From Candidatus Omnitrophota bacterium (GTDB lineage: Bacteria; Omnitrophota; Gorgyraeia; JAZDFF01), in assembly GCA_043808095.1 (NCBI GenBank), contig JAZDFF010000040.1, positions 1,908 through 65,907 on the forward strand: a stretch of DNA of 64,000 bases. Reading direction: 5' to 3'. Positions 1,197 to 49,167 of the stretch are shown here, one piece after another. Position 1 is the stretch's first letter. The number at the start of each line of letters is the position of its first letter. The notes beneath the pieces are model-generated. The model was not told the origin of the DNA, did not search any database, and worked only from the letters and a program-made list of their open reading frames with translations. A program made the translations under genes and the position numbers.

Positions 1197-2849
1197 TTAT
1201 TCCCTTCTAAAGACCCTGCCTCTAAAGGTCTCCAGTGCAGATTTAATGAATGACTCGTCTTCTTTTCTCTCGGTACTGCCTGTTTTTCCTATCTCTGTAG
1301 TTGTAAAATTAATGCGTAATTTTGTATTAAGCAGGTTATTGAGGGTATTCTCAATCAAAGACTTGTTGTCATTCTTCTCTAAAACTTCCCGATGAAGCGA
1401 CGCAGATTTAGCAAAACCAACGGTAAGAAGGCTCTTTTCTATCTTTAACGGCGCGCCTTCCTGAAGATAAGTTGCCGTAGACATTTTAACCTTACCTAGC
1501 TCATTAATCAAGTCCGGCCAGACATTTTTAATCTGGGCGATATCAGTTATATGGGTATTGGCCTCTTCTGCCTTGGGCTCATTTGGACTGTGCGGCTCTT
1601 CGAGAGGCTCCACCAATTTAGCCGCGTTGATTTTAGGCTCCATAATTTTCGGGATGCTCGTTGGGTTTACCGGATTATTCCGGGCCTTCGGCTGTTGGGG
1701 CATTTTAATCGAAGATAGGGTATGGGGGTTATTTTCCTGTTTTTCTTTTAAGGCGCTTGGGCCCGAGTGCGTAAGTTTAACCAATAAGACCTCAAGAGGA
1801 ATCCTCAAAGTCTCTAATCTCTTAGTGGTCTCTCCGGTAGAAATAATAAGATTCATGATATTTAGGAGTTCGGATATAGAGAAAAATTGCGACTGTTTAT
1901 AAATTGTTTCCTGATTTTCTGCGGTCAGATCAATCAGCCCCTTTAGTGAATCTTTGCCGATTTTAGCCACTAAGATATTGCGGAAATGCTCTAATAAATG
2001 GGGAATAAATTGCGCTGTATCTTTACCTTCATTTATCAGCCTATCTAATAATTTCAAGGCACCGAGCGAATCCTTCTTAATAATATATTCCGTTAACTCA
2101 AATAACGACTCTTGCTCCAATATACCAAGAAGAGAGACTACGTCGCTTACCTGTAATTTCTCTTTAGAGAATGATACGAGCTGGTCAAGAATGGATTCTG
2201 CGTCCCTTATGGAGCCGTCAGAGGCCCGGGCAATCGCAAAGAGCACCCTTTTATCGACATTCAATTTTTCGCTTGCCGTTATCTTCTCTAATTTCTCGGT
2301 AATCTTCAAAGCAGGCACGCGCCTGAAATCAAAACGCTGGCAGCGGGAGATTATCGTCGAGATTATCTTATGCGGTTGGGTAGTGGCAAAGACGAATTTT
2401 ACGTGAGCAGGCGGCTCCTCCAGAGTTTTAAGCAAGGCATTAAAGGCGGCATCAGAGAGCATATGCACTTCATCAATGATATAAATCTTAAACCTGCCAT
2501 TAACCGGGGAAAATTTGACGTTTTCGCGTAGTTGCCTTACATTATCGATGCCGGTATTAGAGGCACCGTCTATCTCGATAACATCAAGGCTGCGGCTTTC
2601 GGTAATCTCGCGGCAGGCGACACATTTCTGGCAGGGCTTTACAGTCGGGCCTTTCTCGCAGTTTAAGGACTTGGCGAAAATTCTTGCGGTTGAGGTCTTA
2701 CCTACCCCGCGCGGGCCGCTAAATAAGTAGGCATGGGCCAGGCGGTTATTAAGAATGGCATTCTTTAAAGTTTTAGTGATGTGATCTTGGCCTATTACCT
2801 CATCGAGTTCCTGAGGCCGCCATTTACGTGCGAGGACTATGTAGGACAT
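1197..2849 (-). CDS. dnaX: DNA polymerase III subunit gamma/tau.
   Basis: It has an AAA+ clamp-loader N-terminus (GPRGVGKTS Walker A), a Cys-rich zinc module (CEKG..CQKCVAC) and a SRC motif. Confidence 0.93.
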   Translation of the reverse strand: MSYIVLARKWRPQELDEVIGQDHITKTLKNAILNNRLAHAYLFSGPRGVGKTSTARIFAKSLNCEKGPTVKPCQKCVACREITESRSLDVIEIDGASNTGIDNVRQLRENVKFSPVNGRFKIYIIDEVHMLSDAAFNALLKTLEEPPAHVKFVFATTQPHKIISTIISRCQRFDFRRVPALKITEKLEKITASEKLNVDKRVLFAIARASDGSIRDAESILDQLVSFSKEKLQVSDVVSLLGILEQESLFELTEYIIKKDSLGALKLLDRLINEGKDTAQFIPHLLEHFRNILVAKIGKDSLKGLIDLTAENQETIYKQSQFFSISELLNIMNLIISTGETTKRLETLRIPLEVLLVKLTHSGPSALKEKQENNPHTLSSIKMPQQPKARNNPVNPTSIPKIMEPKINAAKLVEPLEEPHSPNEPKAEEANTHITDIAQIKNVWPDLINELGKVKMSTATYLQEGAPLKIEKSLLTVGFAKSASLHREVLEKNDNKSLIENTLNNLLNTKLRINFTTTEIGKTGSTERKEDESFIKSALETFRGRVFRRE

Positions 2850-3051
2850 GATTTCATTCCCGATGGTTTAAGCAAAACAACGCAGAAATACAAAATTTTA
2901 GTATTCGAACGGCGCCGCGCTCGCTGCGGCTCCTGTCATGTAAGACTCTGGCTCGGGCGGAGCCTCGCCAGAGTCCGTTGTTTCTTTTCTAGTTGTTGTG
3001 AAAAATTATCTTCCTTGCGGGTTGATGATTTTTCGCTTAAGGTAGAAACAA

Positions 3052-3141
3052 CGGAGGAGTTGGGATTTGAACCCAAGGGCCCAGTTTACCCAGGCCAACT
3101 CTTTAGCAGAGAGTTGCTTTCAACCACTCAGCCACTCCTCC
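3052..3141 (-). tRNA. tRNA-Ser(GCU), type II with a long variable arm.
   Basis: Reverse complement: GGAGGAG TG GCTGAGTGGTTGAAAGC AACTCT CTGCTAA AGAGTT + variable arm + GGGTTCAAATCCC AACTCCTCC G. Confidence 0.85.
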
Positions 3142-3154
3142 AAAGAAATTATTT

Positions 3155-4159
3155 CTAGTTATAAAAGCTCTGATAAGCCAAAAGTAAACGTTCGTTGTTA
3201 GAACCTATTTCTTTGAAATAACGTTTTATCTCTAATAAATCATAAATATAAACCCTATTTCCATTTTTTATTTTTGGCGTAAAACCTAAGTTTCTGAATA
3301 TCAGTACTACTGATTTGAATAAAGGTTTAGAACAATTCGTAAAACAAATTCTCAAATATCTATATTGCTTTTCGTTAATCTTGTATGTATGAAAATAAGT
3401 ACCGCCATCTGTATCCATAAGGCCTTTTAAACATGCCCGTTGAAATTCCTTATTTTTTTTAATCCAATTCGGAATATCAATCTTATTTCTGATTTTATCT
3501 CCTATTTTAAACCCCTGGCTATTTAAGAATTTCACTAATTCTACGCTTGAAACAATTATATCAGCTCCATTATTTCCTCTATTAATATGGCGTGTTGAAT
3601 CAAGTAAAAATAATTCTTTTATCAGTTTTGCACAATAATCAGAATAATTTTTATCTTTTATATTATTATATGATATTGCAATCTGGTATTTACTCTTAAC
3701 CCCTCCATCTCCCATAAATATGCCGATAAACTCAGCTAATTTAATAGAAGGAGACGGATAAGAAATTATTTTTTTTACCGTAACCCCAAATCTTTTAAAA
3801 TATTCCGGATTTGTTTTTATTAATTCTTGAGTAGTTAAGCCGCCCTTTTTTCTTCCTTCATAAGTACCCGGATTTCCATATAACTTAAGCCTGGCTTTAG
3901 CGCCTAATCTTCCGGCATTAGAAGAATTCCAAGATTCTGGTAGAAAATTAGCAGTTTTGGGTATTAAAATTCCCGTCAGTTTCTCTAACTTTAAGGCAGA
4001 TTCATAACTCATATTAAATTTTTCTCTTTCCCAATCACATAATGTCCTTGGGTGAATATTACAAATCTTGGTTATCCCGACCCGATGTTTAACTAATTTT
4101 GATTTATTCCTTATTATAAATTCTCTCTGTTTGCCCTTTGGAAATGATAATCTAGCCAT
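3155..4159 (-). CDS. Free-standing double-motif LAGLIDADG homing-endonuclease-like protein with an N-terminal HTH-like region.
   Basis: Two LAGLIDADG motifs are present: LAEFIGIFMGDGGV and ACLKGLMDTDGGTY. The stop codon lies 13 nt upstream of the 5' end of tRNA-Ser(GCU) on the same strand. Confidence 0.75.
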   Translation of the reverse strand: MARLSFPKGKQREFIIRNKSKLVKHRVGITKICNIHPRTLCDWEREKFNMSYESALKLEKLTGILIPKTANFLPESWNSSNAGRLGAKARLKLYGNPGTYEGRKKGGLTTQELIKTNPEYFKRFGVTVKKIISYPSPSIKLAEFIGIFMGDGGVKSKYQIAISYNNIKDKNYSDYCAKLIKELFLLDSTRHINRGNNGADIIVSSVELVKFLNSQGFKIGDKIRNKIDIPNWIKKNKEFQRACLKGLMDTDGGTYFHTYKINEKQYRYLRICFTNCSKPLFKSVVLIFRNLGFTPKIKNGNRVYIYDLLEIKRYFKEIGSNNERLLLAYQSFYN

Positions 4160-4206
4160 TTTTACAACGTTTTTTCTTTCCCGCCTTGCGCTTAGTGCCT
4201 ATTGTG

Positions 4207-4218
4207 GCGGGATCCCGC
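4207..4218. promoter_or_regulatory. GCGGGATCCCGC palindrome, one copy of a six-member intergenic palindrome family.
   Basis: The same 12-mer, or its CGGGATCCCG core, recurs at 40723, 49147, 51631, 53061 and 28752, each 20-100 bp 5' of a minus-strand gene start. Confidence 0.4.
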
Positions 4219-4221
4219 CAA

Positions 4222-4680
4222 CTATTTAGTGCGTTTGCGGGAAAAAAAATCTTTCAGTAAAGAGCTGCTCTCTCTTTCTAAAACACCCTTCGTAACTTTT
4301 ATGCGATGATTTAGTTTTTTGTTGTCTACTATATTGATTACTGAGCCGCACGCCCCTGCCTTAGGGTCGGCTGCGCCGTAAATTAGGCGCTTAATCCGCG
4401 CTAAAACAAGTGCGCCTGCACACATACTGCAGGGCTCAATTGTAACATATAATGATGCCTCGGGCAACCACTTACTAGCCAGGTAATTTGTAGCACTGGT
4501 AAGGGTAATCATCTCGGCATGGGCAGTTGAATCTTTGAGTCTTTCTACCTGATTATGGCCCCGGGCAATGATTTTCCGGTCATGGACAATGACGCAGCCA
4601 ACCGGGACCTCGTCTTCTTCGGCTGCAATATACGCCTCCTTAAGCGCCTCTTGCATATAAATCTCATCAATCTTGCCCAT
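4222..4680 (-). CDS. tadA: tRNA-specific adenosine(34) deaminase TadA.
   Basis: It has the CDA-fold zinc motifs HAE and PCxxC (HAEMITL, PCSMCAGAL). It lies directly beside tRNA-Arg(ACG), which is its substrate. Confidence 0.9.
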   Translation of the reverse strand: MGKIDEIYMQEALKEAYIAAEEDEVPVGCVIVHDRKIIARGHNQVERLKDSTAHAEMITLTSATNYLASKWLPEASLYVTIEPCSMCAGALVLARIKRLIYGAADPKAGACGSVINIVDNKKLNHRIKVTKGVLERESSSLLKDFFSRKRTK

Positions 4681-4713
4681 AACCCTTAGTTCTTAGTTCT
4701 TAAATCTGAAGTA

Positions 4714-4760
4714 ATGCGCCCGGCTGGAATCGAACCTGCAACAACTTGCTCCGCCCCTCG
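4714..4760 (-). pseudogene. Degenerate 3' portion of a tRNA-Arg(ACG)-like gene: variable loop, T-arm and acceptor 3' strand.
   Basis: Reverse complement GGAGCAAGTTGTTGCAGGTTCGATTCCAGCCGGGCGCA aligns with positions 36-73 of the intact tRNA-Arg, with a mismatch in the T-stem. It is preceded by a CCTCG..CGAGG hairpin. Confidence 0.55.
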
Positions 4761-4800
4761 CTTTTACATTTAGCGGAATCCCGAGGTTTTATCAATAAAG

Positions 4801-4874
4801 TGCGCCTGGCTGGATTTGAACCAGCAACAACCAGCTCCGTAGGCTGATGCTCTATCCAGTTGAGCTACAGGCGC
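4801..4874 (-). tRNA. tRNA-Arg(ACG).
   Basis: Reverse complement: GCGCCTG TA GCTC AACTGGATA GAGC A TCAGC CTACGGA GCTGG TTGTT GCTGG TTCAAAT CCAGC CAGGCGC A. No CCA is encoded. Confidence 0.88.
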
Positions 4875-4899
4875 ATTAAAATTATTACAAATAACTAAC

Positions 4900-5092
4900 T
4901 CAGCTCGGGACGGAGTGCAAATAAAAACCGAGGGACTCCGTAGGCTGATGCTCTATCCTTCGCCGTAGGCGAATCCGCCTGCGGCGGAAATTGCCCGCCA
5001 CTAAAACTTTGCCGCCACAAATCTTAGGCGGCTCGCCAATGAATTGTGGCGAGGCGGGTCCGCCAATCTTTGTGGCGGAAGCTACAGGCGCA
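4900..5092 (-). pseudogene. tRNA-Arg(ACG)-like 5' portion carrying two inserts: a 120-nt insert in the D-loop and a 32-nt insert after the anticodon loop. It has no T-arm.
   Basis: Reverse complement: TGCGCCTGTAGCT [120-nt insert] GGATAGAGC A TCAGC CTACGG [AGTCCCTCGGTTTTTATTTGCACTCCGTCCCG] A GCTGA. The insert pairs with the anticodon (ACGGAGT/ACTCCGT), as pre-tRNA introns do. Confidence 0.55.
4960..5079 (-). repeat. A 120-nt multi-hairpin insertion element, copy 1. It is built from CCGCCA-loop-TGGCGG hairpins.
   Basis: It is near-identical (about 3 mismatches) to 16212..16331, and both copies interrupt the D-loop of a tRNA-Arg-like 5' fragment at exactly the same position. Confidence 0.7.
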
Positions 5093-5103
5093 AACGTAAT
5101 TAT

Positions 5104-5397
5104 TTAGCCAAATTTAGCCAGCTGAATCAAATTAATACAATTGACTAAAGATAACGCTGCAAGTATCGGGCCAAATATAGCCCTTTTTTCAAATATCCAG
5201 TCATCAATAACATTAATCTCGCCTTCGATTGACGATAAAAGTATTGTCCCTGAGCCAAAATTTATATTGAGAATCTCTTCTAATTTCGTATATGTCTTAG
5301 GCGAAAACATATAAATCAAAATTAATACAAATGAGGCCATGGAGGCCAGGAAAAGAAACACCGTTAACATCTGCAAGATACTATCTATGCCAAACAT
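5104..5397 (-). CDS. Small hypothetical membrane protein with two or three predicted TM helices.
   Basis: It is an ORF with hydrophobic segments, and I found no recognisable domain. Confidence 0.4.
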   Translation of the reverse strand: MFGIDSILQMLTVFLFLASMASFVLILIYMFSPKTYTKLEEILNINFGSGTILLSSIEGEINVIDDWIFEKRAIFGPILAALSLVNCINLIQLAKFG

Positions 5398-5452
5398 ATA
5401 ATTTTACCTTAAATTTAATTTGAAGCAAATTTTCCCTTTTCGGAAAAATCAG

Positions 5453-5540
5453 CGGAGGGAGTGAGATTCGAACTCACGTGAGCCTTACGACCCAACCGCT
5501 TTTCGAGAGCGGCCCGTTATGACCACTTCGGTATCCCTCC
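5453..5540 (-). tRNA. tRNA-Ser(CGA), type II.
   Basis: Reverse complement: GGAGGGA TA CCG AAGTGGTCATAA CGG G CCGCT CTCGAAA AGCGG + long variable arm + GAGTTCGAATCTC ACTCCCTCC G. Confidence 0.82.
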
Positions 5541-5897
5541 GAATTTGTCGCGGTTTTCCCCTCGTCACTTCGTTCCTCGGGACTCCGCTCACTCCGTTCG
5601 CTTCGCGAGACCGCTAATTTGCCTTTGTTTAACCCATGCAAATTATCCCGAGATTATCGAGGGGCGCATTCGACCGCCCGCCATTAATACTTTGGCGGGC
5701 GTCCGCCTAAGTTTTAGTGGCGGACGCTCTGCCAACTCTCCAAAAATTTATTTCATGAATTTTTGGATCCTGAATCCCGATATAATCGGGATGAAAGATC
5801 TTTCAAAACTCTTGGCTTACCGTTCGGCTACCCTCGCTGCGTAGATCCTTCGCTTTCGCTCAGGATCCGATTTGCTTTCCATTAAGGGAGAAAAAAT

Positions 5898-5984
5898 CGG
5901 AGGCGGAAGGATTCGAACCCTCGGTGGACTTACGCCCACAACGGTTTTCAAGACCGCCGCTTTCAACCGCTCAGCCACGCCTCC
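5898..5984 (-). tRNA. tRNA-Ser(UGA), type II.
   Basis: Reverse complement: GGAGGCG TG GCTGAGCGGTTGAAAGC GGCGGT CTTGAAA ACCGT + variable arm + GGGTTCGAATCC TTCCGCCTCC G. Confidence 0.82.
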
Positions 5985-6058
5985 CAAAAATTGCTTTTTA
6001 ATTTTTGGGACTTCGAATCCCGCCATAGGCGGGACGAGAAGTCTTTGCTGAATGTTTT
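5985..6058 (-). promoter_or_regulatory. Conserved tRNA-proximal 5' element: a GTCCCGCC-loop-GGCGGGAC hairpin followed by a CCAAAAATT..AATTTTTGG palindrome.
   Basis: It directly abuts the 5' end of tRNA-Ser(UGA). Near-identical copies lie at 7770..7842 and 8201..8277, and a diverged copy at 5745..5822. It is probably a promoter or leader region. Confidence 0.5.
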
Positions 6059-6081
6059 TTAGATCTCTCTATTCGTTATAA

Positions 6082-7419
6082 CTACATCAGATCTTTCCTC
6101 TTACAGCCTATAGATTTCAAAGCCCCTTCAGGATCATCATTATAGGCGCGGCAAAAAGTTGTTACATCCTTCATCAGGCGGATATTTTTATCTTTTAGAA
6201 TCCTCAATATCTTAGCGCGTATATTGGTTTCCTCTATTACCTCTCTGGGGCTTATCCCCTTAATCTCAGAAAGCCTCTCGCGGAACATCCCGCTTACGCC
6301 GCTATTTACAAATTCTTTTTTTGCAAAATCAAATGACCAGATGCAGGTAAGTAATACCATCTTCTTTTCCATGCCTCCGGTCTCATGAATTTCGGCAACC
6401 ACCCGATGAATTCCGTGCTCATCCTGGAATCTTCTCATTACCACCAACACATCTATCAAACTCACTAATGCCTCAGGCACATTCATGGGTTCATTCTGAA
6501 GCCTGATAATAGTCTCTCTGGCAGTGCTGGCGTGTATTGTGCCGATACAGTATTTACCTATATTCATTGCCGTCATCATATCTTTGGCTTCTCTGCCGCG
6601 TACCTCGCCCACGATTATCCTGTCCGGACGCATCCTCAGGCTATTTTTAACCAAATCCTCAAGGCTCAGATGTTCATCGCTTTCTAAGCGCGAGCAATTC
6701 TCCTCTAAATCCGTATTAAGTTCTAAGGTATCTTCAATTATTACCAACCGTTCGCTGCGCGGGAGAAAACTCAAAATGGCATTTAAAAGAGTAGTCTTAC
6801 CCGAGCCCGGCCCGCCTGAAATAAGGATATTGGCCGGCTTCATAGCTAAACCCTCAACATAAATCCAGAAATGCGCGGCTAAATCATAGCTCAAGGTCCC
6901 GTTTTCGATAAGTTCGATAATACTTAGAGGTATTTCCTTCGCCCGGGTTATGGTGATTTGGGGGCCGTAAGGAGAAAATATGATATTAACCCTTCCTTTG
7001 ACATCCCTTAATTCAATGTTGTTGATTTTACGGATCTCGCTTCTTCCTGAAAATATCACCAATTTCTTGATAAATAGATTTAACTCATCATTATTTGTAA
7101 ACCCGGCCTCGGTCTTTACCAGGCCGTATTTGGTCTTATGGATAAATATGGGGCTTAAGCCATTAATGATAATATCCTCAACCTGAGGGTCATTTAAAAA
7201 TTCTTCGATAGGGCCGTAAGACAAAAATTTCTCAAAAAATGCCTCTATATCCAACCCCTTTATCTTCTTCAAGATGTTTTTGCCTTTGGCGGTATTGTAG
7301 ACTTCCAAAAAATGATTAAAGATTACGCCTTTTTTTTCTTGAGGATCCTGGTTTAAGGTAATTTTTCCGGCAACACGATCCAGAACTTCGTTTTCCATAT
7401 TTAAGAAATCTCTATCCAT
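6082..7419 (-). CDS. CpaF/TadA/VirB11-family type II/IV secretion ATPase.
   Basis: It has Walker A (GGPGSGKTT), an Asp box, and the His box and IIVGEVRG motif typical of CpaF/FlaI-type ATPases. It is an orphan gene between tRNA-Ser genes. Confidence 0.85.
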   Translation of the reverse strand: MDRDFLNMENEVLDRVAGKITLNQDPQEKKGVIFNHFLEVYNTAKGKNILKKIKGLDIEAFFEKFLSYGPIEEFLNDPQVEDIIINGLSPIFIHKTKYGLVKTEAGFTNNDELNLFIKKLVIFSGRSEIRKINNIELRDVKGRVNIIFSPYGPQITITRAKEIPLSIIELIENGTLSYDLAAHFWIYVEGLAMKPANILISGGPGSGKTTLLNAILSFLPRSERLVIIEDTLELNTDLEENCSRLESDEHLSLEDLVKNSLRMRPDRIIVGEVRGREAKDMMTAMNIGKYCIGTIHASTARETIIRLQNEPMNVPEALVSLIDVLVVMRRFQDEHGIHRVVAEIHETGGMEKKMVLLTCIWSFDFAKKEFVNSGVSGMFRERLSEIKGISPREVIEETNIRAKILRILKDKNIRLMKDVTTFCRAYNDDPEGALKSIGCKRKDLM

Positions 7420-7496: not shown

Positions 7497-7685
7497 GTGG
7501 CGGCGCCGCGCTCGCTGCGGCATCCGCCAAAATTTTCCTTGTCGGAAAAAGCATTAAGGGTGCGGCGCCGAAACACATTGTTTCGGCATCCGCCAAAATT
7601 TAAATTGGCGAAAAACATTAAGGTGGCGGGGCCGAAATACATTATTTCGGCATCCGCCAAAATTTAAATTAATTTAAATTTTGGC
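7497..7685. repeat. Three tandem copies of a roughly 64-nt unit, each carrying two hairpins (GCCGAAACA..TGTTTCGGC and GCCAAAATTTAAATTGGC), located immediately 3' of tRNA-Ser(GGA).
   Basis: The periodicity is directly visible. The last unit merges into the tRNA 3' end (..CTCTCCGCCAAAATT). Confidence 0.7.
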
Positions 7686-7769
7686 GGAGAGGGAGGGATT
7701 CGAACCCTCGGACCCTTGCGGATCACATGTTCTCCAGACATGCCGGTTAAACCACTCCCGAACCTCTCC
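7682..7769 (-). tRNA. tRNA-Ser(GGA), type II, with CCA encoded.
   Basis: Reverse complement: GGAGAGG TT CGGGAGTGGTTTAACCG G CATGT CTGGAGA ACATG + variable arm + GAGGGTTCGAATCCCTC CCTCTCC G CCA. Confidence 0.85.
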
Positions 7770-7842
7770 AAAAAATTGCTTTTTATTTTTTGGATTTCGA
7801 GTCCGCCAATGCTTTAATGGCGGACGAGAAATCTTAATTACC
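7770..7842 (-). promoter_or_regulatory. tRNA-proximal 5' element, copy directly upstream of tRNA-Ser(GGA).
   Basis: It is near-identical to 8201..8277 and 5985..6058. Confidence 0.5.
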
Positions 7843-8100
7843 TTTGATCAACGCTAATTTCTTCTTACGGCTAAATCTCTTTACCTCTAATTCTCTTTTC
7901 CTGGCTAAATTATAATTTTCACACAATTCTTTATGTAGCAAAATCAAGGGCTTGCGAAAACGCGTGTAACGACATTTATTCGAAGTATTATGTTCATGAA
8001 TACGTTGTTCTACATTTATGGAAATACCTACATATAAGGTGTTATCTCGACATTCTGCTATATAAACGTACCAGGGTTTAGAATAATTAACCTTAGCCAC
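7834..8100 (-). CDS. Small GIY-YIG nuclease-domain protein of the YhbQ/UPF0213 type.
   Basis: It has the motif block WYVYIAECRDNTLYVGISINVEQRIHEHN. It sits between two copies of an approximately 85-bp direct repeat. Confidence 0.75.
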   Translation of the reverse strand: MAKVNYSKPWYVYIAECRDNTLYVGISINVEQRIHEHNTSNKCRYTRFRKPLILLHKELCENYNLARKRELEVKRFSRKKKLALIKGN

Positions 8101-10485: not shown

Positions 10486-11949
10486 CTAGCCCTTTATTAC
10501 ACCTAAAGGCCTCATCCTGCAGACGCGTTTTGAAATGCCGGCATTATGCACTACATCTACCACATCATTTACATCTTTATAGGCCTGGGGCGCTTCTTCA
10601 ACAATAGTCCCCCGCCCGGTTGCCTTAACTGTAATGCCTTTTGATTCTAATTCCTTTAATAACGCACTCAAATCAATGGTTTTAAGCGCACCACTTCGGG
10701 ATTTAAGCCGGCCTGCGCCATGGCAGGTCGACCCGAAGGTCTCTTCCATTGCCTTTTGCGTACCCACTAAAAGATAGGAATTCCTGCCCATATCTCCGGG
10801 GATAATCACCGGCTGGCCGGTCTTTTTGTATCGGGCAGGTAATGCTGGATTTCCCGGGCCAAAGGCGCGCGTAGCGCCTTTTCTATGGATACATAGATTT
10901 TTCTCTTTACCGTCAACCGTATGCCTCTCCATCTTTGCGATATTATGGGCCACGTCATAAATTAAAAACATGCCCATATCCTGCCAGGAACGGTTAAAAA
11001 ACTTCTCAAATACCTCGCGGGTCAAATGCATCAGGCATTGCCGATTTGCCCAGGCGTAATTTGCCGCGCATCTCATGGCCCCAAAATAAGCCTTACCTTC
11101 GGACGAATTAACCGGAGCACAGGCAAGCTGCTTGTCCGGGACATTGATATTATATTTCGCCAGGCAATGAATCATGGTCTTGAGAGAGTCATCGCAGACC
11201 TGATAACCTAAGCCCCGTGAACCGGAATGTATCATAATCGTAATCTGGCCTTCGGTTAAGCCAAATTCATCGCAAAGATCGCGCTCATACAGCCGGTCAA
11301 TTACCTGGACCTCTATGAAATGATTTCCCGAGCCGAGTGTCCCGGATTGGGCCTTGCCTCTAACATAAGCCCTATCTGAAACTGCCGAAGGATCTGCTCC
11401 GGCAATTGCACCAAATTCTTCGGTACACTCTAAATCATCGCTAGTTCCGTAGCCTTTTTCAACCGCCCACTTTGCACCTTTTACTAAAATTTCTTTTTCT
11501 TCTCTGGTAGTGACCTTTATATCGCCTTTTGAACCTATACCTGTAGGTATGTCATTAAATAGGGCATAGACCAAATTCTTGATTTTATCTTTTATCTCAT
11601 CAAATTGAAAATTAGTTTTAAGGAGTCTTATCCCGCAATTTATGTCATAGCCCACGCCTCCGGGCGAAATTACTCCGCCTTCCTCAGGGTCAGTTGCCGC
11701 TACCCCTCCGATACAAAATCCATATCCCCAATGGATATCCGGCATAGCCAGGGAATAATTTACAATCCCCGGTAAAAATGCGACATTTGCCACCTGTTCC
11801 AGGGCTCTATCCTGGCGGATATCCTTTAGCAGTTTCTCATCGGCATAGATAATTCCCGGAACCCGCATTCCGGGTTTATAACTCTTGGGTATACGCCAAC
11901 GATAATCGTCAATCTTCTCTAATGGTACTTGCCCGATCTCAGACATCAA
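10486..11949 (-). CDS. rtcB: RNA-splicing ligase RtcB (3'-phosphate/5'-OH ligase).
   Basis: Conserved RtcB blocks are present: NCGIRLL, HSGSRGLG and CHGAGR. Confidence 0.92.
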   Translation of the reverse strand: MMSEIGQVPLEKIDDYRWRIPKSYKPGMRVPGIIYADEKLLKDIRQDRALEQVANVAFLPGIVNYSLAMPDIHWGYGFCIGGVAATDPEEGGVISPGGVGYDINCGIRLLKTNFQFDEIKDKIKNLVYALFNDIPTGIGSKGDIKVTTREEKEILVKGAKWAVEKGYGTSDDLECTEEFGAIAGADPSAVSDRAYVRGKAQSGTLGSGNHFIEVQVIDRLYERDLCDEFGLTEGQITIMIHSGSRGLGYQVCDDSLKTMIHCLAKYNINVPDKQLACAPVNSSEGKAYFGAMRCAANYAWANRQCLMHLTREVFEKFFNRSWQDMGMFLIYDVAHNIAKMERHTVDGKEKNLCIHRKGATRAFGPGNPALPARYKKTGQPVIIPGDMGRNSYLLVGTQKAMEETFGSTCHGAGRLKSRSGALKTIDLSALLKELESKGITVKATGRGTIVEEAPQAYKDVNDVVDVVHNAGISKRVCRMRPLGVIKG

Positions 11950-12503: not shown

Positions 12504-12576
12504 TGAGCCGCGAAGGAATCGAACCTTCAACCCCCAGATTAAGAGTCTGATGCTCTACCGATTGAGCTAGCGGCCC
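12504..12576 (-). tRNA. tRNA-Lys(CUU).
   Basis: Reverse complement: GGGCCGC TA GCTC AATCGGTA GAGC A TCAGA CTCTTAA TCTGG GGGTT GAAGG TTCGATT CCTTC GCGGCTC A. Confidence 0.88.
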
Positions 12577-13240
12577 TTATTCTTTTTACGACACCCTCAA
12601 TCCAACCGAGTATTCTATATAAAAGATTCTTATCGCAGACTTCAATTTTTATTGTCCCTTGATATAAAATATTTTTGCGATGTCCCGTACCTTCTCTTTT
12701 AATATAACTTTTGCCAAATTGTAAAATTGGCAGACCAATTATATCTGACCAGAATTTTTTTATTTTTAATTCATCTTGTCCAGAATGAATATTGAGATAA
12801 ACTTTAAACCTCTCCTCAGGAATATTGCATATCTCCCTAAACCATCTCATCATAAAATGTATCAATTCGGGATCAGAATTAGAGACACCGACTCTATTCT
12901 TTTTATTTCCCTCTGCCCAATATAGCATTATACCAGCTAACTTAAATTCATTTTTGCTCAATAAATCGATGTCTAATTTTGCTTTTTCCTTGATTTCTAC
13001 AATCTCTTTATTTCTTCTTGCCTGCGTAGCTTTCGACCCAAGCAATCTCCCCCTATAACTGCCATCCTTAAAAAGCCTATCCAACCTATCTTTCTGCTTT
13101 GCCGTCAACTCTATATCCCTACACCAATCACTAATTGTACTTTTTGAGATACTGGACGGCATTCTCTGCCCTATCTCTTTATAACTCAAACCTTGCGATC
13201 TCAAGTTTCTAACTAACTTCTGTTTCCGCCAACTTTTCAT
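12539..13240 (-). CDS. Single-motif LAGLIDADG-like homing-endonuclease-family protein with an N-terminal HTH-like region.
   Basis: It has a LAGIMLYWAEGNK block and an HTH-like N-terminus (ISDWCRD) resembling the ORF at 3155..4159. The reading frame runs through the first 38 nt of tRNA-Lys and terminates at the UAA inside the tRNA anticodon loop. Confidence 0.5.
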   Translation of the reverse strand: MKSWRKQKLVRNLRSQGLSYKEIGQRMPSSISKSTISDWCRDIELTAKQKDRLDRLFKDGSYRGRLLGSKATQARRNKEIVEIKEKAKLDIDLLSKNEFKLAGIMLYWAEGNKKNRVGVSNSDPELIHFMMRWFREICNIPEERFKVYLNIHSGQDELKIKKFWSDIIGLPILQFGKSYIKREGTGHRKNILYQGTIKIEVCDKNLLYRILGWIEGVVKRIRAASSIGRASDS

Positions 13241-13329
13241 CGTTTAATATCTTCTACTCTGCCAACCCCGAATGAAATATTTCTGCGAAGTTATACTCCG
13301 GGACCCCGAAGCTTTACTTCTATGAATAA

Positions 13330-13346
13330 CTACATTCGGGATTGAG
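13330..13346 (-). repeat. A 16-17-nt duplicate of the tRNA-Lys(CUU) 5' end (GGGCCATTAGCTCAATC), located upstream of the LAGLIDADG-like gene.
   Basis: It matches positions 1-16 of the intact tRNA-Lys at 12576 with one mismatch and then diverges. Confidence 0.55.
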
Positions 13347-13620
13347 CTAATGGCCCGTTTGTCATATTTTAACACAGATTAGCACAGATGAAAAGAAACA
13401 GATTAGCACAGATGGAGGATAACAAAATACTTTTAAGCGTTTATTTTTCTGATAGATAGCCATTGTTACTCCCTCTCCCTCGACTTCGTCCTTCGACGCG
13501 CTCGCCTTTGGCGAGCTTGCTCAGGAAGACCCTGAGTTTGTCGAATGGGTCGCTCGGGATGGTGAGCGAAGTCGAACCACTAAACTGCTTAATTATTTTA
13601 TAATAAGACTGATAATAGCT

Positions 13621-14877
13621 TCATCGAATTTTTCTCAAAAATGGTTCCCAATTTAGTAAAAAGTCAACAATATCCTCAGCCATGCTGGCGTTTCCAACTT
13701 TATTAGGATGTGGATCAAAATTGTATCTTTGATACTGCCTTCGGGGCTCTATTAAAGAAATTTTGTTGCGTTCGCAAACTTCCTTCAAATCCCTCAAGGG
13801 TCTTTTTAAATCAATTAAATATTCTTGCCCTTTCCAAACTGAACGATCAACACCCCCCACTTGTTCTATTAAATTCCATCTCTCACTGAAGATTCTTAAA
13901 CCGTTTTCACCAGATTCTGAAAAAATTAAAAAGTCAGCATCTATCTTCTCGGAAATTTGTTTCATCTTAATACTTAAAACTTCAAATAAATCCCATGCCG
14001 ATAGCGATTCTTTTGAATGATTAAAAGAACTATGCCTATAAACTCCTTGGGGATTCATAAGAAAAGGTCCCCACTGAAACTTTATTTTTGCCATTTCTTC
14101 CTTAGAAAACCCCTTTACTTTCTCTTCATCTACCCTCTGCAGTGAAATCATTAATCTATTTTTTAATCTAATGGCGTGCCAAACTAAGGCACTTTTATTA
14201 AAAAAACTTCTTATTTTACTGGTTTCGGAAACTTTCTTAGTCTTGGGGTAAAGGTTAATTTTCTCTAACTTACCATCTATCATTTTGTATTTAAATACTT
14301 TGTTATTGTGTAATTTCGTAGAAATTCCTTTTTCGTATGGGAACAAAATTTCTTCGATATCATTTGCACAAAATTGATATATCACAATATCTGGCTGGTA
14401 TTTAATCCCCTCCCTACTTAATGCCTCCAATGCCTGATCAGTTGACCACCCCCCTACGCCTATGGTGATTACTTCAATATTGTCAAATCCTAATCTTTTA
14501 AATAATAGTTCTACTTTTCGAGTATACAAATCATCAATAGCCACAAAACCCCAAGTAATGGAATCACCCAAAAAAAGAATCCTGACAACGCCTTCAGGCT
14601 TTTCAAAGCTATGTTCCACATCCTTCCAACCTTGCGAATTAGTATAAAAATTTATTATTTCGTCAGTATCTGGATTGATAAATTGTATCCGACTGCGAGG
14701 TGGAGGCGCCCATCCGTAAATCTTAGCTTTTGGTGTTGCAGTTGTCCCAACGCCCACCTTTATCGGTGGTAATACATTCCAAAGAATAAACTCTATCACC
14801 AATAAGCTGATAAACACCGATATTGCAATAAGCAGTAAATTTTTGCTAATACTTTTAATCAAGAATCTATAGGCCAT
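13621..14877 (-). CDS. Membrane-anchored SGNH/GDSL-family hydrolase.
   Basis: It has an N-terminal TM helix and the GDSL block ILFLGDSITWGF. Confidence 0.7.
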   Translation of the reverse strand: MAYRFLIKSISKNLLLIAISVFISLLVIEFILWNVLPPIKVGVGTTATPKAKIYGWAPPPRSRIQFINPDTDEIINFYTNSQGWKDVEHSFEKPEGVVRILFLGDSITWGFVAIDDLYTRKVELLFKRLGFDNIEVITIGVGGWSTDQALEALSREGIKYQPDIVIYQFCANDIEEILFPYEKGISTKLHNNKVFKYKMIDGKLEKINLYPKTKKVSETSKIRSFFNKSALVWHAIRLKNRLMISLQRVDEEKVKGFSKEEMAKIKFQWGPFLMNPQGVYRHSSFNHSKESLSAWDLFEVLSIKMKQISEKIDADFLIFSESGENGLRIFSERWNLIEQVGGVDRSVWKGQEYLIDLKRPLRDLKEVCERNKISLIEPRRQYQRYNFDPHPNKVGNASMAEDIVDFLLNWEPFLRKIR

Positions 14878-15117
14878 AGACGCTTTATATAATTACCTAC
14901 ATTACAATGTGTTACAAAATAATTCCATAAAACTTTCATTATCGATTTCTTTCATAACTTAATGAAATATATAAAGTTAGATACAACACCTACGCTCCTG
15001 CCCAACCAACTATTAATTGTTTTTTATTCATTTAAACTGCTCCCTTCGACTCGGCTTCGCCTCGCTCAGGACTAAAAAGAGTCTTCGCTTTGGGGCGGAT
15101 TTGAATTTAACTATATT

Positions 15118-15804
15118 TCATCTATGTTCTTCAATTCCTTTTAATAATTGATTGACATAATCAAGATTACGCTGGTCTGCCAATTTAGTATATAACTCTT
15201 TTGCCTTTAATAAAACAGACTCTGCTGAATCATAATTATTAAGCATAATATAGGCATAGCCAAGATTTGAATAAATGAAAGATAAATGAACATCCTCTGG
15301 AATGCTGAGTGGTTTTAGCTGTGCTGCTTTCTCTAACGCCTTGACCGCTTCTGCATATTGTTGAGTTGTAACATATTCTTTCCCCAGATTTGAATACATC
15401 TCAGCATAGTTAGGATTCATCTCAATGGCTTTCTTATAATTCTTAATTGCCGAATCATAATCTTTCATTGAATTATAAACTGTTGCTAAATTACTATAAG
15501 CTTCAGTATAATTAGGATTTAAACTAATGGCTTTTTCGAAATTTTCTTTCGCTTTATCAAATTGGCTCAAAAATAAATAATTAATTCCTAGATTTAAGAA
15601 AACACCAGGGTCATCTGTTTTTAAAGCAACAGCCCTTTCCAAAAGCTCAATTGCTTTCCCATATGCTTTGTACTGATTTGTGTACACATAAGCTTCTTTT
15701 TTTAACTCTTGCACATTTTGGGTATTATCTGTTTCTGCAAATGCTACTGAAGACGCAAACAATAAAACAAAAAACAACAAAAACTTATTTTTCATATCCA
15801 TCAC
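15118..15804 (-). CDS. Secreted TPR-repeat protein.
   Basis: It has a signal peptide followed by tandem 34-residue TPR-like repeats. Confidence 0.75.
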   Translation of the reverse strand: MMDMKNKFLLFFVLLFASSVAFAETDNTQNVQELKKEAYVYTNQYKAYGKAIELLERAVALKTDDPGVFLNLGINYLFLSQFDKAKENFEKAISLNPNYTEAYSNLATVYNSMKDYDSAIKNYKKAIEMNPNYAEMYSNLGKEYVTTQQYAEAVKALEKAAQLKPLSIPEDVHLSFIYSNLGYAYIMLNNYDSAESVLLKAKELYTKLADQRNLDYVNQLLKGIEEHR

Positions 15805-16041: not shown

Positions 16042-16115
16042 CGCCCCTGGAGGGAGTTGAACCCCCAACGCCTAGCTCCGAAGGCTAGCGCTCTATCCAG
16101 TTGAGCTACAGGGGC
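16042..16115 (-). tRNA. tRNA-Arg(UCG).
   Basis: Reverse complement: GCCCCTG TA GCTC AACTGGATA GAGC G CTAGC CTTCGGA GCTAG GCGTT GGGGG TTCAACT CCCTC CAGGGGC G. Confidence 0.85.
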
Positions 16116-40643: not shown

Positions 40644-40789
40644 GGTTAAATTGCTATATTGTTAAATTGTTATACTGCTATCAATTTGACAATTTTCCCG
40701 CCCATCAATTTAATTACGTGACGGGATCCCGCCACTTTTTATAAAACTGTTTAGGCGGGAAACAGTTTGACAGTTTAACAATTTAAAAG

Positions 40790-45603: not shown

Positions 45604-48600
45604 CTAACACTTAGAGAAACCACAGCCATGGCATTTGATACAGCCTTCTTCATGACGTAATGCTCCGCCGCAATCAGGGCAAACACCGACGATGTTTCCC
45701 CGATGGGCGCTGTGAACAAGATGCTCTTCGGATTTAAGCAGAGATTCGATTTCTTGGTTTACCTCTGATTCTTTTTGCTTATTATTAAGTAGCCTTTTTT
45801 CGATTACCCTGGCCATAGCATCGGCACAGGAAAAAATCCTCACACCCTTTTCCCAGGAAGGCGAAGGACACCTAATACCATGCAATTGGTCAATTATAGA
45901 CTTTACTTCAATCTCAGAGCGCAGCGCCAAAGAAACGAGCCTGCCTATAGCCTCAAGTTGGCTAGCTGCACATCCTCCGGCCTTACCCATCTGGGTAAAG
46001 ATCTCAAAAGGCCTACCTTCTTCGTCGCTATTTATGGTTACATAAAGATTACCGCAGCCTGTCGGCACCTTTGTAGTTGTTCCGTTAATTACCTCGGGGC
46101 GCGGCCGGGGCGTAATCTTATCAATCTCTGTCTTTTGTTCTTTACGGCCGATGTTTAGGACTTGTTCATCCCTGCTTCTGTCTCGGTAAATAGTCGCACC
46201 TTTACAACCGAGTTTATAGGCACTCATGTAAACCTGGCGCACGTCTTCAACAGTAGCATTTTCCGGGAAGTTCACGGTTTTACTGACTGCATTATCAGTA
46301 TACCTCTGGAATACTGCCTGCATCCTGATATGCCACTCGGGTGCAATATCATGGGCAGTGACAAAAACCCGCCTGATATCTTCAGGTATTTCTTTTAAAT
46401 CTTTGATTGAGCCTTTCTCGGCAACCTTAGACATCAATTCCCGGGAATAAAACCCTCTTTCCTTGGCTACCTCTTCAAATACTGGGTCTACCTCAACAAG
46501 TTTATCATTATCCATCACATTGCGATAATAAGAGACGGCAAATATCGGCTCAATACCCGAGGAGCACGGACCGGCAATAATACTTATTGTTCCGGTAGGG
46601 GCAATTGTGGTAAGAGTAGCATTTCTGAGTCTTAGGCTTTTTTTCTTATCATACATGCTACCAAGAAATGCCGGGAAAACCCCTCTTTCCTTGGCAAGCC
46701 GTATAGACTCTTCTCTTGCCTCTTTAAGGATAAAAGACATTATTGCATTACCGAGTCTTAAGGCCTCATCAGAATCATAAGGAATACCCAATTTTAAAAG
46801 AAGGCTACCCCAGCCCATTACACCAAGTCCGATTTTACGGGTAAGCTTGGTGTTCTCTTCAATTATCGGCACAGGGAATTTATTGATGTCGATGACGTTA
46901 TCCAAGAAATGCACAGCTCCATGAGTTATGTTTTTAAGTCTGGGCCAATCGACGCTAAGTCTGCCATTTTTCTCTTTGACCATTAAGGCAAGGTTAATTG
47001 AGCCCAGATTACAGGATTCATAAGGCAAAAGTACTTGCTCTCCGCAAGGATTAGTCGACTCGTACTTGCCTAATTCCGGTGTGGGGTTAAATTCATTCAT
47101 CCGGTCGATAAAAATTATACCAGGTTCGCCATTTTTATGCGCCTGTTTAACAATCAAATCAAAGACCTCTTTAGCATTCAATTGTTTCAAGGCCTTGGCT
47201 GTATGCGGATCAATTAAATCGTAGTTTTCTGCCTTAGCCACTTTATTCATAAATTCCTTGGTAATGGCAACCGAGATGTTAAAATTAGTGATATCACGAT
47301 TGGATTCTTTGCAGGTTATAAACTCCAAAATATCAGGATGATCCACCCGCAATATCCCCATATTGGCGCCACGTCTGGTGCCGCCCTGTTTTACCGCCTG
47401 AGTGGCTGAGTCGAAAACCTTCATAAAAGAAACCGGTCCCGAGGCAATCCCTCCGGTAGATTGTACGACGCTATTTTTTGGCCTAAGACGAGAAAAGGAA
47501 AAACCAGTGCCTCCTCCACTTTTGTGGATCAATGCAGTAGCTTTGAGTGATTCAAAAATGCTATCCATGGAATCATCGATGGGCAGGACGAAACAATTAT
47601 GAACGGAAACGAAATTCGCAGAATAGGAATGATCTTCTTCAACTTCTAAATTATAGACCTTGCCCTGATAAGACTGTTTTTCAATATAGTCAACAGGACT
47701 AAATAATATTCCCTCCCTCTCGATACTACGGATAAATTCAAAACCATTATGCGGTATTTCTGTTTCTAATAATTCGGCTACAATCTGAGAACCATATCTG
47801 CCCGAAACCTGACATTTCACTGGTCTAACCCGACCCAGACGAGGCATCGAATCAAAATTTAAAGCAGCAAAGGACCCCAAGCGCATCAACATCTGCCAAG
47901 CAGCATAAACCGCATTTGTATTACACATTACTAATTTTGTAGAAAAATTATTCCCATTCTTAAAGACACAACTGTCGCCTCTAAATAATCCGGCAAGAAA
48001 TCCTTTTTGCTTTTTGGCAGGTAAAAGAATAAACCATGGCGGTATAGATTTAGAAGCATAGCCTGTGTTAAATAATTTCAAAAAGAATTCAGCCAATATC
48101 TTAGAGTGAAATCTTAAAGAGATCCATCGACGTTGGGGAGAATCTGTAGTCTCAATTCTAGATGTTATCCCAAATTTATTTTTAACTATGCGCATAACGT
48201 CTTGTGCATATGATTCTTCTTCATTTGAGAAAGTAAATCTTAAAACCTCATTTTCACTAACACAACCCTCAGAAAAATAATATCCAAATAGTCTCATCAA
48301 AGATACATCTAATACTATTTCATTTCTTACGGGATGCACTTGTCTGGATATTTCTCCACTACGATTTCTATTTTGGGTATAAATAGTGCCGTCTTTCCTA
48401 ACATAATACCTAATATCTGCATTTCTTTGATAAAGAACCCCTTCTATTTCAATAAAATCGCTGTTATCAAGATAATCGGAGATTTTAATCGTCTCTCTAT
48501 CCATAGTTTCTTGGGGATAATTTAAAGCCACGTAGTCACCGACGCGCAGATCCGCAGCTTTTAACCAACGAATACTGCTCCCCTGTTTCCTCATAGCTAA

Positions 48601-49167
48601 TACCGGATGTTCACCCGTAACTTTCAAAGTCTGGGTAGGTAATTTGTATATTCCGATTATATACAACAAATCACTAGTCCGCTCAAATTTTTCCAAGACC
48701 CTTTTGAATCTATTTCTATGAGTTAAAATCTCATCTCCAATATTTATATCACTAATGGCCCGGGGGCCATCTTTAGTAATTATTAATTGGTCAGGATGAA
48801 AACACGCCGATAACTGACCGAGTTCTCTTCCCGCATTCATTAAGGTAGGAGAATTGGGCATGAATTCCAAAGAGGCCAATAACCCATAAAACTTCTCTTC
48901 TAATTTTCTTATCTGAGTGCCATTTTTACCATAGGCCCTGTCGGCAGAAGATATGGATTTGGCAATACGCCGAAACATCTGGTCGGGAGATTCAATCACC
49001 TTACCACTTGGGTCCTTTTTAAGATACCTTCTTTCCAGCACCGTTTTGGCATTTAGAGATAAGAACGGTTCCATATCAGGCTCCTTTAATGAACCCCGAC
49101 GTATCGTCGGGACAAATTTTCCCGCTTCAAATCTGTAAAACATAAAGCGGGATCCCGCCACCGTCAA
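45604..49167 (-). CDS. nrdJ: Class II (adenosylcobalamin-dependent) ribonucleotide reductase NrdJ interrupted by a 403-aa intein.
   Basis: The NrdJ blocks NPCGEQ..CNLGSINL and the C-terminal zinc ribbon are present. The intein is inserted at the conserved ..GQLSA|C..HN|CFVLP site. The true start is probably the internal MEPFLSL (about 49074). Confidence 0.9.
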   Translation of the reverse strand: MTVAGSRFMFYRFEAGKFVPTIRRGSLKEPDMEPFLSLNAKTVLERRYLKKDPSGKVIESPDQMFRRIAKSISSADRAYGKNGTQIRKLEEKFYGLLASLEFMPNSPTLMNAGRELGQLSACFHPDQLIITKDGPRAISDINIGDEILTHRNRFKRVLEKFERTSDLLYIIGIYKLPTQTLKVTGEHPVLAMRKQGSSIRWLKAADLRVGDYVALNYPQETMDRETIKISDYLDNSDFIEIEGVLYQRNADIRYYVRKDGTIYTQNRNRSGEISRQVHPVRNEIVLDVSLMRLFGYYFSEGCVSENEVLRFTFSNEEESYAQDVMRIVKNKFGITSRIETTDSPQRRWISLRFHSKILAEFFLKLFNTGYASKSIPPWFILLPAKKQKGFLAGLFRGDSCVFKNGNNFSTKLVMCNTNAVYAAWQMLMRLGSFAALNFDSMPRLGRVRPVKCQVSGRYGSQIVAELLETEIPHNGFEFIRSIEREGILFSPVDYIEKQSYQGKVYNLEVEEDHSYSANFVSVHNCFVLPIDDSMDSIFESLKATALIHKSGGGTGFSFSRLRPKNSVVQSTGGIASGPVSFMKVFDSATQAVKQGGTRRGANMGILRVDHPDILEFITCKESNRDITNFNISVAITKEFMNKVAKAENYDLIDPHTAKALKQLNAKEVFDLIVKQAHKNGEPGIIFIDRMNEFNPTPELGKYESTNPCGEQVLLPYESCNLGSINLALMVKEKNGRLSVDWPRLKNITHGAVHFLDNVIDINKFPVPIIEENTKLTRKIGLGVMGWGSLLLKLGIPYDSDEALRLGNAIMSFILKEAREESIRLAKERGVFPAFLGSMYDKKKSLRLRNATLTTIAPTGTISIIAGPCSSGIEPIFAVSYYRNVMDNDKLVEVDPVFEEVAKERGFYSRELMSKVAEKGSIKDLKEIPEDIRRVFVTAHDIAPEWHIRMQAVFQRYTDNAVSKTVNFPENATVEDVRQVYMSAYKLGCKGATIYRDRSRDEQVLNIGRKEQKTEIDKITPRPRPEVINGTTTKVPTGCGNLYVTINSDEEGRPFEIFTQMGKAGGCAASQLEAIGRLVSLALRSEIEVKSIIDQLHGIRCPSPSWEKGVRIFSCADAMARVIEKRLLNNKQKESEVNQEIESLLKSEEHLVHSAHRGNIVGVCPDCGGALRHEEGCIKCHGCGFSKC
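47596..48804 (-). mobile_element. Intein within NrdJ with an embedded double-motif LAGLIDADG homing-endonuclease domain.
   Basis: The intein begins with Cys after GQLSA and ends VHN, followed by extein Cys (CFVLP). The internal LAGLIDADG motifs are LFGYYFSEG and FLAGLFRGDS. Confidence 0.85.

Follow-up and report, generated by a model that had tools for sequence, protein, structure and literature searches.

What keeps a gene for a LAGLIDADG endonuclease in a bacterial chromosome when it lies, outside any intron or intein, directly upstream of a tRNA gene? The question is raised by a stretch of 64,000 nucleotides (nt) from Candidatus Omnitrophota bacterium (GenBank assembly GCA_043808095.1, contig JAZDFF010000040.1, positions 1,908 to 65,907), hereafter the window, in which an open reading frame (ORF) for a LAGLIDADG protein of 334 amino acids (aa) stands between a tadA-like gene and tRNA-Ser(GCU). 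An original prediction, made from the letters of the DNA, had proposed that the gene belongs to a family of homing-type elements associated with tRNA genes. We conclude that it probably encodes a monomeric, two-motif, free-standing LAGLIDADG homing endonuclease, that it is present as a bare ORF between tadA and tRNA-Ser(GCU), and that its family lodges at the 5' ends of tRNA-Ser genes.

A free-standing gene for a two-motif LAGLIDADG protein

The gene occupies 3155..4159 on the minus strand (stop codon included), begins with ATG, and encodes the 334 aa and the two motifs that had been announced for it. The first LAGLIDADG domain spans approximately residues 139 to 235 (3455..3745, minus strand), with the motif FMGDGGV at residues 148 to 154 (3698-3718), and the second spans approximately residues 237 to 334 (3158..3451, minus strand), with the motif LMDTDGGTY at residues 247 to 255 (3395-3421). 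The Pfam profile LAGLIDADG_3 (PF14528), which had been suggested as a check, matched the protein in two stretches (E=5.3e-10; 39.9 bits against a cut-off of 22.5), the best one covering residues 238 to 319. With NCBIfam, the matches were partial only and fell on the endonuclease portions of models for RFC, RtcB, and V-ATPase proteins that contain inteins; outside the family, the sequences closest to the protein are likewise endonuclease domains of inteins (RFC, RtcB, and VMA). In an alignment of 36 homologues, G150, D151, and G152 of the first motif and D249, T250, D251, and G252 of the second were invariant, indicating that both catalytic acidic residues (D151 and D251) have been kept.

An AlphaFold2 model built from the family alignment (mean predicted local distance difference test score [pLDDT], 89.8) showed the duplicated alpha-beta-beta-alpha-beta-beta-alpha fold, the first LAGLIDADG domain beginning with a helix at residues 139 to 151 that is followed by beta strands. 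Searched against the PDB with Foldseek, the model gave 125 matches at E<=0.001, headed by I-Tsp061I (2dch; E=1.4e-12; template modeling score, 0.75 on the target) and including the TliVMA intein endonuclease domain, I-DmoI, I-AniI, the I-OnuI family, the bI3 maturase and, at rank 45, WhiA; the family profile finds the same proteins by sequence. The LAGLIDADG fold, on which the original prediction had made itself depend, is thus present in the predicted structure, and two motifs with acidic residues, a Pfam match above threshold, and a duplicated fold place the protein in the double-motif LAGLIDADG class.

Ahead of these domains, the protein carries a putative helix-turn-helix (HTH)-like domain at approximately residues 7 to 68 (3956..4141, minus strand), as had been suspected. 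The model places a helical bundle over residues 10 to 62 (helices 10-23, 29-33, 37-44, and 52-62), residues 13 to 68 of the family profile weakly match HTH proteins of the XRE/Cro type (CylR2, P22 C2, and HigA; E values of 0.03 to 0.8), and for some homologues precomputed matches to PF01381 or PF13384 exist, all of which weakly supports the assignment. Within the family alignment, W43 of this domain is invariant and G9, Q11, F14, R38, D42, and E46 are nearly so. A clade of short forms, approximately 250 to 260 aa long and found at the same site, is devoid of the domain. A homologue search returned 188 matches; most of those listed measured 320 to 356 aa and a subset about 241 to 288 aa, and the source-named homologues among them were from Omnitrophota, labeled either "LAGLIDADG family homing endonuclease" or "hypothetical protein." The public annotation of the gene (P0002; 285 aa, 100% identical) starts at Met50. 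Since the 49 residues upstream of Met50 align with conserved family positions, the 334-aa form is real, and we correct the public annotation, which starts 49 residues too late and cuts off the N-terminal domain.

The gene had been taken for an independent ORF, and on this point Pfam and Rfam agree. The ORF is bounded by start and stop codons of its own, Pfam detects no Hint or intein domain in it, and Rfam, run over positions 2800 to 6100 of the window, returns tRNAs only, with no intron RNA or ribozyme around the ORF. A hidden intron or ribozyme was rejected on this basis, and the gene does not fall into the intron- or intein-encoded class. It is free-standing and, as is typical of Seg/Mob-type genes, forms a bare ORF between conserved genes that is absent from most relatives.

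A sporadic insertion in a conserved gene cluster

The endonuclease gene adjoins an intact tRNA-Ser(GCU) gene on the same strand (3051..3142 according to ARAGORN; 3052..3141 according to Rfam, 60 bits; minus strand). The spacer from the stop codon to the 5' end of the tRNA (3143..3154, minus strand) measures 12 nt by the bounds of ARAGORN and, by those of Rfam, the 13 nt originally given. The left flank of the insertion site is a gene for a tadA-like tRNA adenosine deaminase (4222..4680, minus strand; Pfam MafB19-deam and dCMP_cyt_deam_1). Both flanks belong to a cluster conserved in Omnitrophota, tRNA-Arg(ACG)-tadA-tRNA-Ser(GCU)-dnaX-recR, whose other members in the window are tRNA-Arg(ACG), upstream of tadA (4800-4874), dnaX (1197-2849), and recR (593-1192), all on the minus strand. 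The endonuclease gene has a GC content of 30.2% and a GC content at third codon positions (GC3) of 23.9%, against 44 to 46% and 47 to 50%, respectively, for its neighbors (z=-3.4 relative to 40 other ORFs of the window); its base composition is foreign.

Empty sites were surveyed in 80 metagenome loci fetched with TadA as the anchor (63 to 79% identical to the TadA of the window), a site being counted as empty when the gap between tadA and tRNA-Ser(GCU) was at most 160 nt. tadA was followed by tRNA-Ser(GCU) in 76 of the 80 relatives, and 61 of these 76 sites were empty, often with a gap of 0 to 30 nt. An endonuclease homologue was present at six sites (L101, L107, L142, and L158 to L160), that is, in about 8% of close relatives. 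One further locus, L088, retained only a relic comprising endonuclease residues 56 to 145, and the other eight had gaps of 178 to 1597 nt with no detectable endonuclease homologue; in the three of these eight that were inspected, the gap held an ORF for a 500-aa membrane protein. L001 and L017, both fetched through the endonuclease, have an empty GCU site and carry the gene at another tRNA-Ser. The three closest homologues among the matches listed (87, 70, and 56% identical) occupy the same site as the gene of the window, in the order tadA-gene-tRNA-Ser(GCU)-dnaX-recR. The gene is therefore polymorphic in presence and absence at a defined genomic site. Fixation in all relatives, which the original prediction had been prepared to count against itself, is not observed; the gene is a sporadic insertion in a conserved cluster.

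Within the window, no other endonuclease copies or relics were found beside the other three tRNA-Ser genes, and a search for terminal repeats or a target duplication around the insert yielded only short, chance-level repeats. No match was found in 50,697 phage records or in PHROGs, and PADLOC gave no match that would indicate a role in defense. The only other LAGLIDADG signal in the window is an intein in ribonucleotide reductase (45604-49167, minus strand), which has Hint, Intein_splicing, and LAGLIDADG_3 domains over approximately residues 122 to 524. RtcB carries a LAGLIDADG_3 intein in L166 and L168; that of the window (10486-11949; 487 aa) is apparently intein-free, judging from its length.

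Association of the family with tRNA-Ser genes

A scan of a collection in which each species is represented by one genome returned at least 519 stretches encoding a relative of the endonuclease. Adjacency to tRNA genes was counted in the best 80 of these loci, which come from Omnitrophota, many lineages of Patescibacteria, Nitrospira (Nitrospirota), and otherwise-labeled metagenome-assembled genomes (MAGs). At 72 of the 80, a tRNA-Ser gene on the same strand starts between -100 and +38 nt from the endonuclease stop codon. At two more (L011 and L049), the ORF reads through the tRNA-Ser gene, which starts 5 to 55 nt past the end of the protein match, so that the same geometry is seen overall at 74 of the best 80 loci. 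tRNA-Ser is adjacent in another arrangement at L037, L047, L058, and L074; of the remaining two loci, L002 ends at a contig edge and L031 is without a tRNA call. A tRNA for another amino acid was never the neighbor. The serine isoacceptors at the family loci were GCU, UGA, CGA, GGA, and ACU. This adjacency is far beyond chance and supports the specificity of the family for tRNA-Ser genes of all isoacceptors, so that the proposal of homing-type elements associated with tRNA genes gains both support and a narrower definition.

In a neighbor-joining tree of the family proteins, clades track the isoacceptor of the site, with few switches (e.g., L024, L017, L080, and L041/L061), and one MAG has copies at two sites (L006 at CGA and L036 at GCU). 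Some endonuclease pairs are more alike than the adjacent TadA proteins (88% versus 75% and 84% versus 72%), and the reverse also occurs, hosts with TadA proteins 80% identical having endonucleases only 45% identical; from these sequence comparisons, both patterns appear as expected of transfer. The window gene and that of L161 share 90.2% DNA identity, compared with 77.9% over the 77 comparable nt of tadA. An internal stop codon interrupts 5 of 86 copies of the endonuclease.

A tRNA-Ser with the unusual anticodon ACU was called by ARAGORN in L018, L020, L029, L041, L061, L065, L072, and L076, mostly labeled Patescibacteria, and in L041 and L061 the endonuclease gene lies directly before it. 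Endonuclease sequence was also seen downstream, not upstream, of tRNA-Ser(GCU): a C-terminal fragment in L146 (4182-4406) and a near-complete copy in L074 (2372-3178).

Junctions and tRNA fragments

On the 3' side, the endonuclease ORF ends flush with the tRNA across the family. In many homologues the frame is closed only by a stop codon within the tRNA, whose sequence is conserved, and this accounts for the clustering of negative stop-to-tRNA distances at -15, -23, and about -50. At the 5' junction, the ATG of the endonuclease gene overlaps the stop codon of tadA (ATGGCTAG) in its closest relatives, L161 to L165, which suggests read-through transcription and coupled translation.

A near-isogenic pair of loci, one occupied (L107) and one empty (L126), is 94.6% identical over 2863 nt, and this homology ends precisely at nucleotide 28 of tRNA-Ser(GCU). 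In L107, the endonuclease ORF comes immediately after the 28-nt tRNA fragment, within which its GTG start codon lies, and the ORF is followed by a complete but different tRNA-Ser(GCU), which differs throughout from the tRNA of L126. Fragments of this kind were then scored across the family with a weight matrix of tRNA-Ser nucleotides 1 to 16, applied to the 80 nt around each ORF start, the threshold being the 99th percentile of control windows placed inside genes. A 5' fragment of tRNA-Ser upstream of the ORF exceeded this threshold in 22 of 90 copies, compared with 5 of 450 controls. The fragments cluster 16 to 58 nt upstream of the conserved N terminus, and in many Patescibacteria copies the motif GGAGATATGGCTGAG holds the start codon. 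The one candidate remnant upstream of the window copy, the 6-nt ATGGCT common to nucleotides 7 to 12 of tRNA-Ser, was rejected as too short. At the GCU sites of Omnitrophota, a variant D-arm (GCCGGAG...CGGAG) was present at 11 of 20 occupied and 6 of 60 empty sites, the hosts being related.

A dispersed palindromic repeat beside the gene

The palindrome that had been assigned to the promoter of the endonuclease gene, GGCGGGATCCCGCC, is present at 4206-4219. It lies in a 64-nt repeat module (4179..4242, minus strand) that adjoins the gene without being part of it and supplies the present stop codon of tadA in the window. The core of the repeat occurs in five copies in the window, against 0.12 expected by chance; the other four, at about 40675-40780, 49100-49205, 51585-51690, and 53015-53120, lie, like the first, within intergenic DNA or at its margin. 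All share a three-part layout, TTTTCCCGC, about 18 nt, GCGGGATCCCGC, about 18 nt, GCGGGAAAA, whose core reads CCCGC / GCGGGATCCCGC / GCGGG in every window copy, and the module folds into a long hairpin (-32.7 kcal/mol; z=-3.6). The module was also seen at L105, an empty site, and is missing from L161 and L162, the closest loci bearing the homing endonuclease gene (HEG). Together with its five copies, this shows an independent dispersed repeat and not a feature of the gene, and a role as promoter or operator of the endonuclease gene is rejected. The repeat looks like a repetitive extragenic palindrome or a miniature inverted-repeat transposable element.

Other genes and fragments at tRNA genes

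The original prediction had also pointed to a second LAGLIDADG-like gene, at tRNA-Lys. This gene (12539..13240, minus strand) encodes a protein of 221 to 233 aa with an N-terminal HTH and an invariant YWAEGxK motif, and its ORF as called runs 38 nt into the adjoining tRNA-Lys(CUU) (12504-12576). It has more than 1,200 homologues at 53 to 80% identity. Its position, between tRNA-Arg(UCG) and tRNA-Lys(CUU) and with the gene end reaching into the tRNA, is shared by the window, L006, and eight other loci; L003 and L015 lack the gene, and there the gap between these two tRNAs is only 54 to 62 nt. The second gene is thus parked like the endonuclease gene and is equally sporadic. Its assignment to the LAGLIDADG group did not stand up as well: the protein has no Pfam domain, searches of the PDB and Pfam profiles found nothing, Foldseek found no recognizable fold match for its model (pLDDT 84.7), LAGLIDADG structures included, and in a profile-profile comparison with the endonuclease family the N-terminal HTH alone aligned, weakly. 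The LAGLIDADG label is not established for this gene, and parking at tRNA genes as a phenomenon is real. Distant relatives of the second gene were seen upstream of tRNA-Ser(CGA) in L009 and of tRNA-Arg(GCG) in L046.

The second gene is part of a low-GC stretch (12577-15804; 31 to 35%) that also holds genes for a GDSL-like lipase (13621-14877) and a tetratricopeptide repeat protein (15118-15804) and that sits between tRNA-Arg(UCG) (16042-16115) and tRNA-Lys(CUU). As the same two tRNAs are 54 to 62 nt apart in L003 and L015, this stretch looks like an inserted block. A gene for a GIY-YIG protein of 88 aa (7834-8100, minus strand; GC content, 33%) lies 64 nt upstream of tRNA-Ser(GGA) (7682-7769); homologues lie 42 to 78 nt upstream of tRNA-Ser genes in L027 and L059, and in L024 one lies just upstream of the LAGLIDADG gene. 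Recombinase-like ORFs in L107 (6326-7210, minus strand) and L137 (2402-4126, minus strand) adjoin tRNA-Ser(GCU) on its 3' side and extend into the tRNA, so that this tRNA is used at its 3' end by integrative elements and at its 5' end by the endonuclease gene.

tRNA-Arg(ACG), the substrate of TadA, lies directly upstream of tadA in 67 of 80 relatives, with tRNA-Ser(GCU) directly downstream, and the gaps between the three genes are too short for separate promoters, which suggests a single transcription unit. In the window, partial copies of tRNA-Arg(ACG) flank the intact gene at 4715-4753 and at about 4935-4960. The downstream piece is a 3' half, 85% identical, and the upstream piece comprises the D-arm and anticodon arm, as though a segment bearing a complete tRNA had split an older tRNA-Arg. 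The downstream 3'-half copy was found in only 2 of 86 related loci.

Discussion

How might such an insertion spread and be tolerated? On the reading that we prefer, the endonuclease gene would be transcribed by read-through from the upstream unit, as its overlap with the tadA stop codon in the closest relatives suggests, and 5' processing by RNase P would free the downstream tRNA from the transcript. Release of the tRNA in this way would make the insertion nearly neutral, as splicing does for intron-borne genes. The enzyme would cut HEG-less tRNA-Ser alleles in or beside the 5' third of the tRNA gene, and repair of the double-strand break from an HEG-bearing copy would bring in the gene along with the adjacent tRNA, in part or in whole. 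The two homology arms would be the tRNA fragment upstream of the gene and the tRNA downstream of it. The HTH domain may extend DNA recognition or repress its own gene, self-repression being known for I-TevI; the clade of short forms lacking the domain indicates that it is not essential for persistence.

Several points weigh against this reading. Endonuclease activity and the target site are predicted only. The intact tRNA beside the gene must escape cutting; variant D-arm sequences are one candidate explanation, and the counts of this variant at occupied and empty sites are uncorrected for the shared ancestry of the hosts. The right-hand junction of L107 is unmappable, the sequence past the tRNA also being different. 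The upstream fragments match the neighboring intact tRNA at only 8 to 16 of 20 positions, which indicates that most of them are old and were inherited with the gene rather than made afresh; that of L107 looks recent and matches its host lineage. The window copy is without an upstream tRNA remnant above background, and no phage or plasmid vector was found for the gene. Finally, most copies of the endonuclease are intact ORFs, which would suit a useful gene too.

The alternative that had been put forward, a domesticated factor, would be such a gene; it would encode a LAGLIDADG protein that serves tRNA-Ser, as an HTH-guided transcription regulator or a maturase-like RNA-binding helper, and would be kept beside its client gene. 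Strict same-strand adjacency across several phyla, the intact state of most copies, the HTH domain, and the presence of LAGLIDADG maturases and WhiA among the fold matches would all fit this explanation. However, the roughly 8% of close relatives that carry the gene at the site contrast with the rest, which do without it; related genomes use different tRNA-Ser genes; and the foreign GC content, the relics, and the internal stop codons point the same way. Both catalytic Asp residues are invariant, whereas WhiA and pure maturases have lost theirs. WhiA does share with the window protein a LAGLIDADG scaffold combined with an HTH, but its HTH is at the C terminus, it lacks catalytic acidic residues, and it is vertically conserved in Gram-positive bacteria, while the window protein has an N-terminal HTH, invariant Asp residues, and a patchy distribution. 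With no WhiA Pfam domain (WhiA_N or HTH_WhiA) in the protein, identity with WhiA is rejected, and we regard domestication in general as unlikely.

The nearest outside relatives being intein endonuclease domains, and the ribonucleotide reductase of the window carrying a LAGLIDADG_3 intein, the gene could also be the remnant, in decay, of an endonuclease from an intein or intron, or a once-mobile hitchhiker now immobile in a neutral intergenic spot. We find this quite improbable, since the ORF is full length with its catalytic residues conserved, the closest relatives among the matches listed sit at the same site at 87, 70, and 56% identity, and the family is large and coherent, with an N-terminal domain of its own and no Hint remnants. 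It is more doubtful still, to the point of being very improbable, that the gene travels as cargo on an integrative element or transposon that targets tRNA genes, a recombinase providing the movement. Integration at tRNA genes is a classic pattern, and in L107 and L137 serine-recombinase genes lie against the 3' end of tRNA-Ser(GCU), but the insert in the window and its closest relatives consists of the ORF alone (about 1.0 kb): integrase, transposase, terminal inverted repeats, and target duplication are all missing. No recombinase gene lies between tadA and dnaX, there are no att-type repeats, and the position is at the 5' end of the tRNA, whereas integrases use the 3' end. For the window, an integrase-borne island is excluded.

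As a homing endonuclease gene, the window gene has partial counterparts among known systems. I-Tsp061I, I-DmoI, and the VMA intein endonuclease resemble the window protein in fold, in their two acidic motifs, and in a core of about 200 residues; they lie inside rRNA introns or inteins, where splicing hides the insertion, whereas the window gene is free-standing before a tRNA and its product alone has an extra N-terminal HTH domain, which with the linker accounts for about 130 residues. The nearest functional parallel is SegB of phage T4, a free-standing GIY-YIG homing endonuclease encoded in the T4 tRNA gene cluster, whose site includes a conserved tRNA motif and which spreads itself along with neighboring tRNA genes (PMC2330249). 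SegB, like the window gene, stands free among tRNA genes and matches the proposed mechanism, including a possible cotransfer of tRNA. It differs in being a GIY-YIG protein of a phage that recognizes the T-psi-C arm common to many tRNAs, whereas the window family is bacterial and chromosomal, keeps to one amino acid class and to the 5' end of the tRNA, and has no phage homologue that we could find. T4 SegF, SegG, MobE, and F-CphI are likewise encoded by bare ORFs between conserved genes, with a patchy distribution and presumed spread by double-strand-break repair, but they are phage systems and none is a LAGLIDADG protein, while the window family resides in the chromosomes of uncultured phyla. 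What sets the family apart from the described cases is a free-standing state in bacterial chromosomes, an N-terminal HTH, and, most of all, a family-wide restriction to the 5' end of tRNA-Ser. We found no description of an association between LAGLIDADG genes and tRNA-Ser in bacteria in the full-text literature, whose coverage was incomplete, so that an earlier report may exist; a paper on the homing endonucleases of rRNA insertions in the candidate phyla radiation does not mention tRNA.

A broader picture, which we put forward only tentatively and think rather doubtful as a whole, would join these elements. The gene would represent an undescribed bacterial chromosomal homing element that breaks the 5' third of tRNA-Ser (the D-arm region) and keeps the host gene working not by splicing but by supplying a replacement 5' segment or a whole tRNA-Ser. 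The old 5' fragment would be left upstream, where it now would provide the start codon in many lineages, and RNase P would separate the mRNA from the tRNA. An unrelated second family would do likewise at tRNA-Lys(CUU), and small GIY-YIG genes perhaps at other tRNA-Ser genes, so that lodging in tRNA 5' leaders might be a general habit of nuclease genes in these phyla.

The usual explanation of a homing endonuclease is the splicing element in which it is hidden, and this large family appears to persist in cellular chromosomes without one; its specificity for tRNA-Ser and the junctions carrying tRNA fragments were unexpected. If the target does lie in the tRNA-Ser gene, the family would provide a natural set of LAGLIDADG enzymes, their specificities related yet different and one per isoacceptor, in which to study the drift of specificity. 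It would also open a route for the exchange of tRNA genes among uncultured lineages, and it would reveal a new means by which a selfish gene spares its host, through the duplication of a gene segment combined with tRNA processing.

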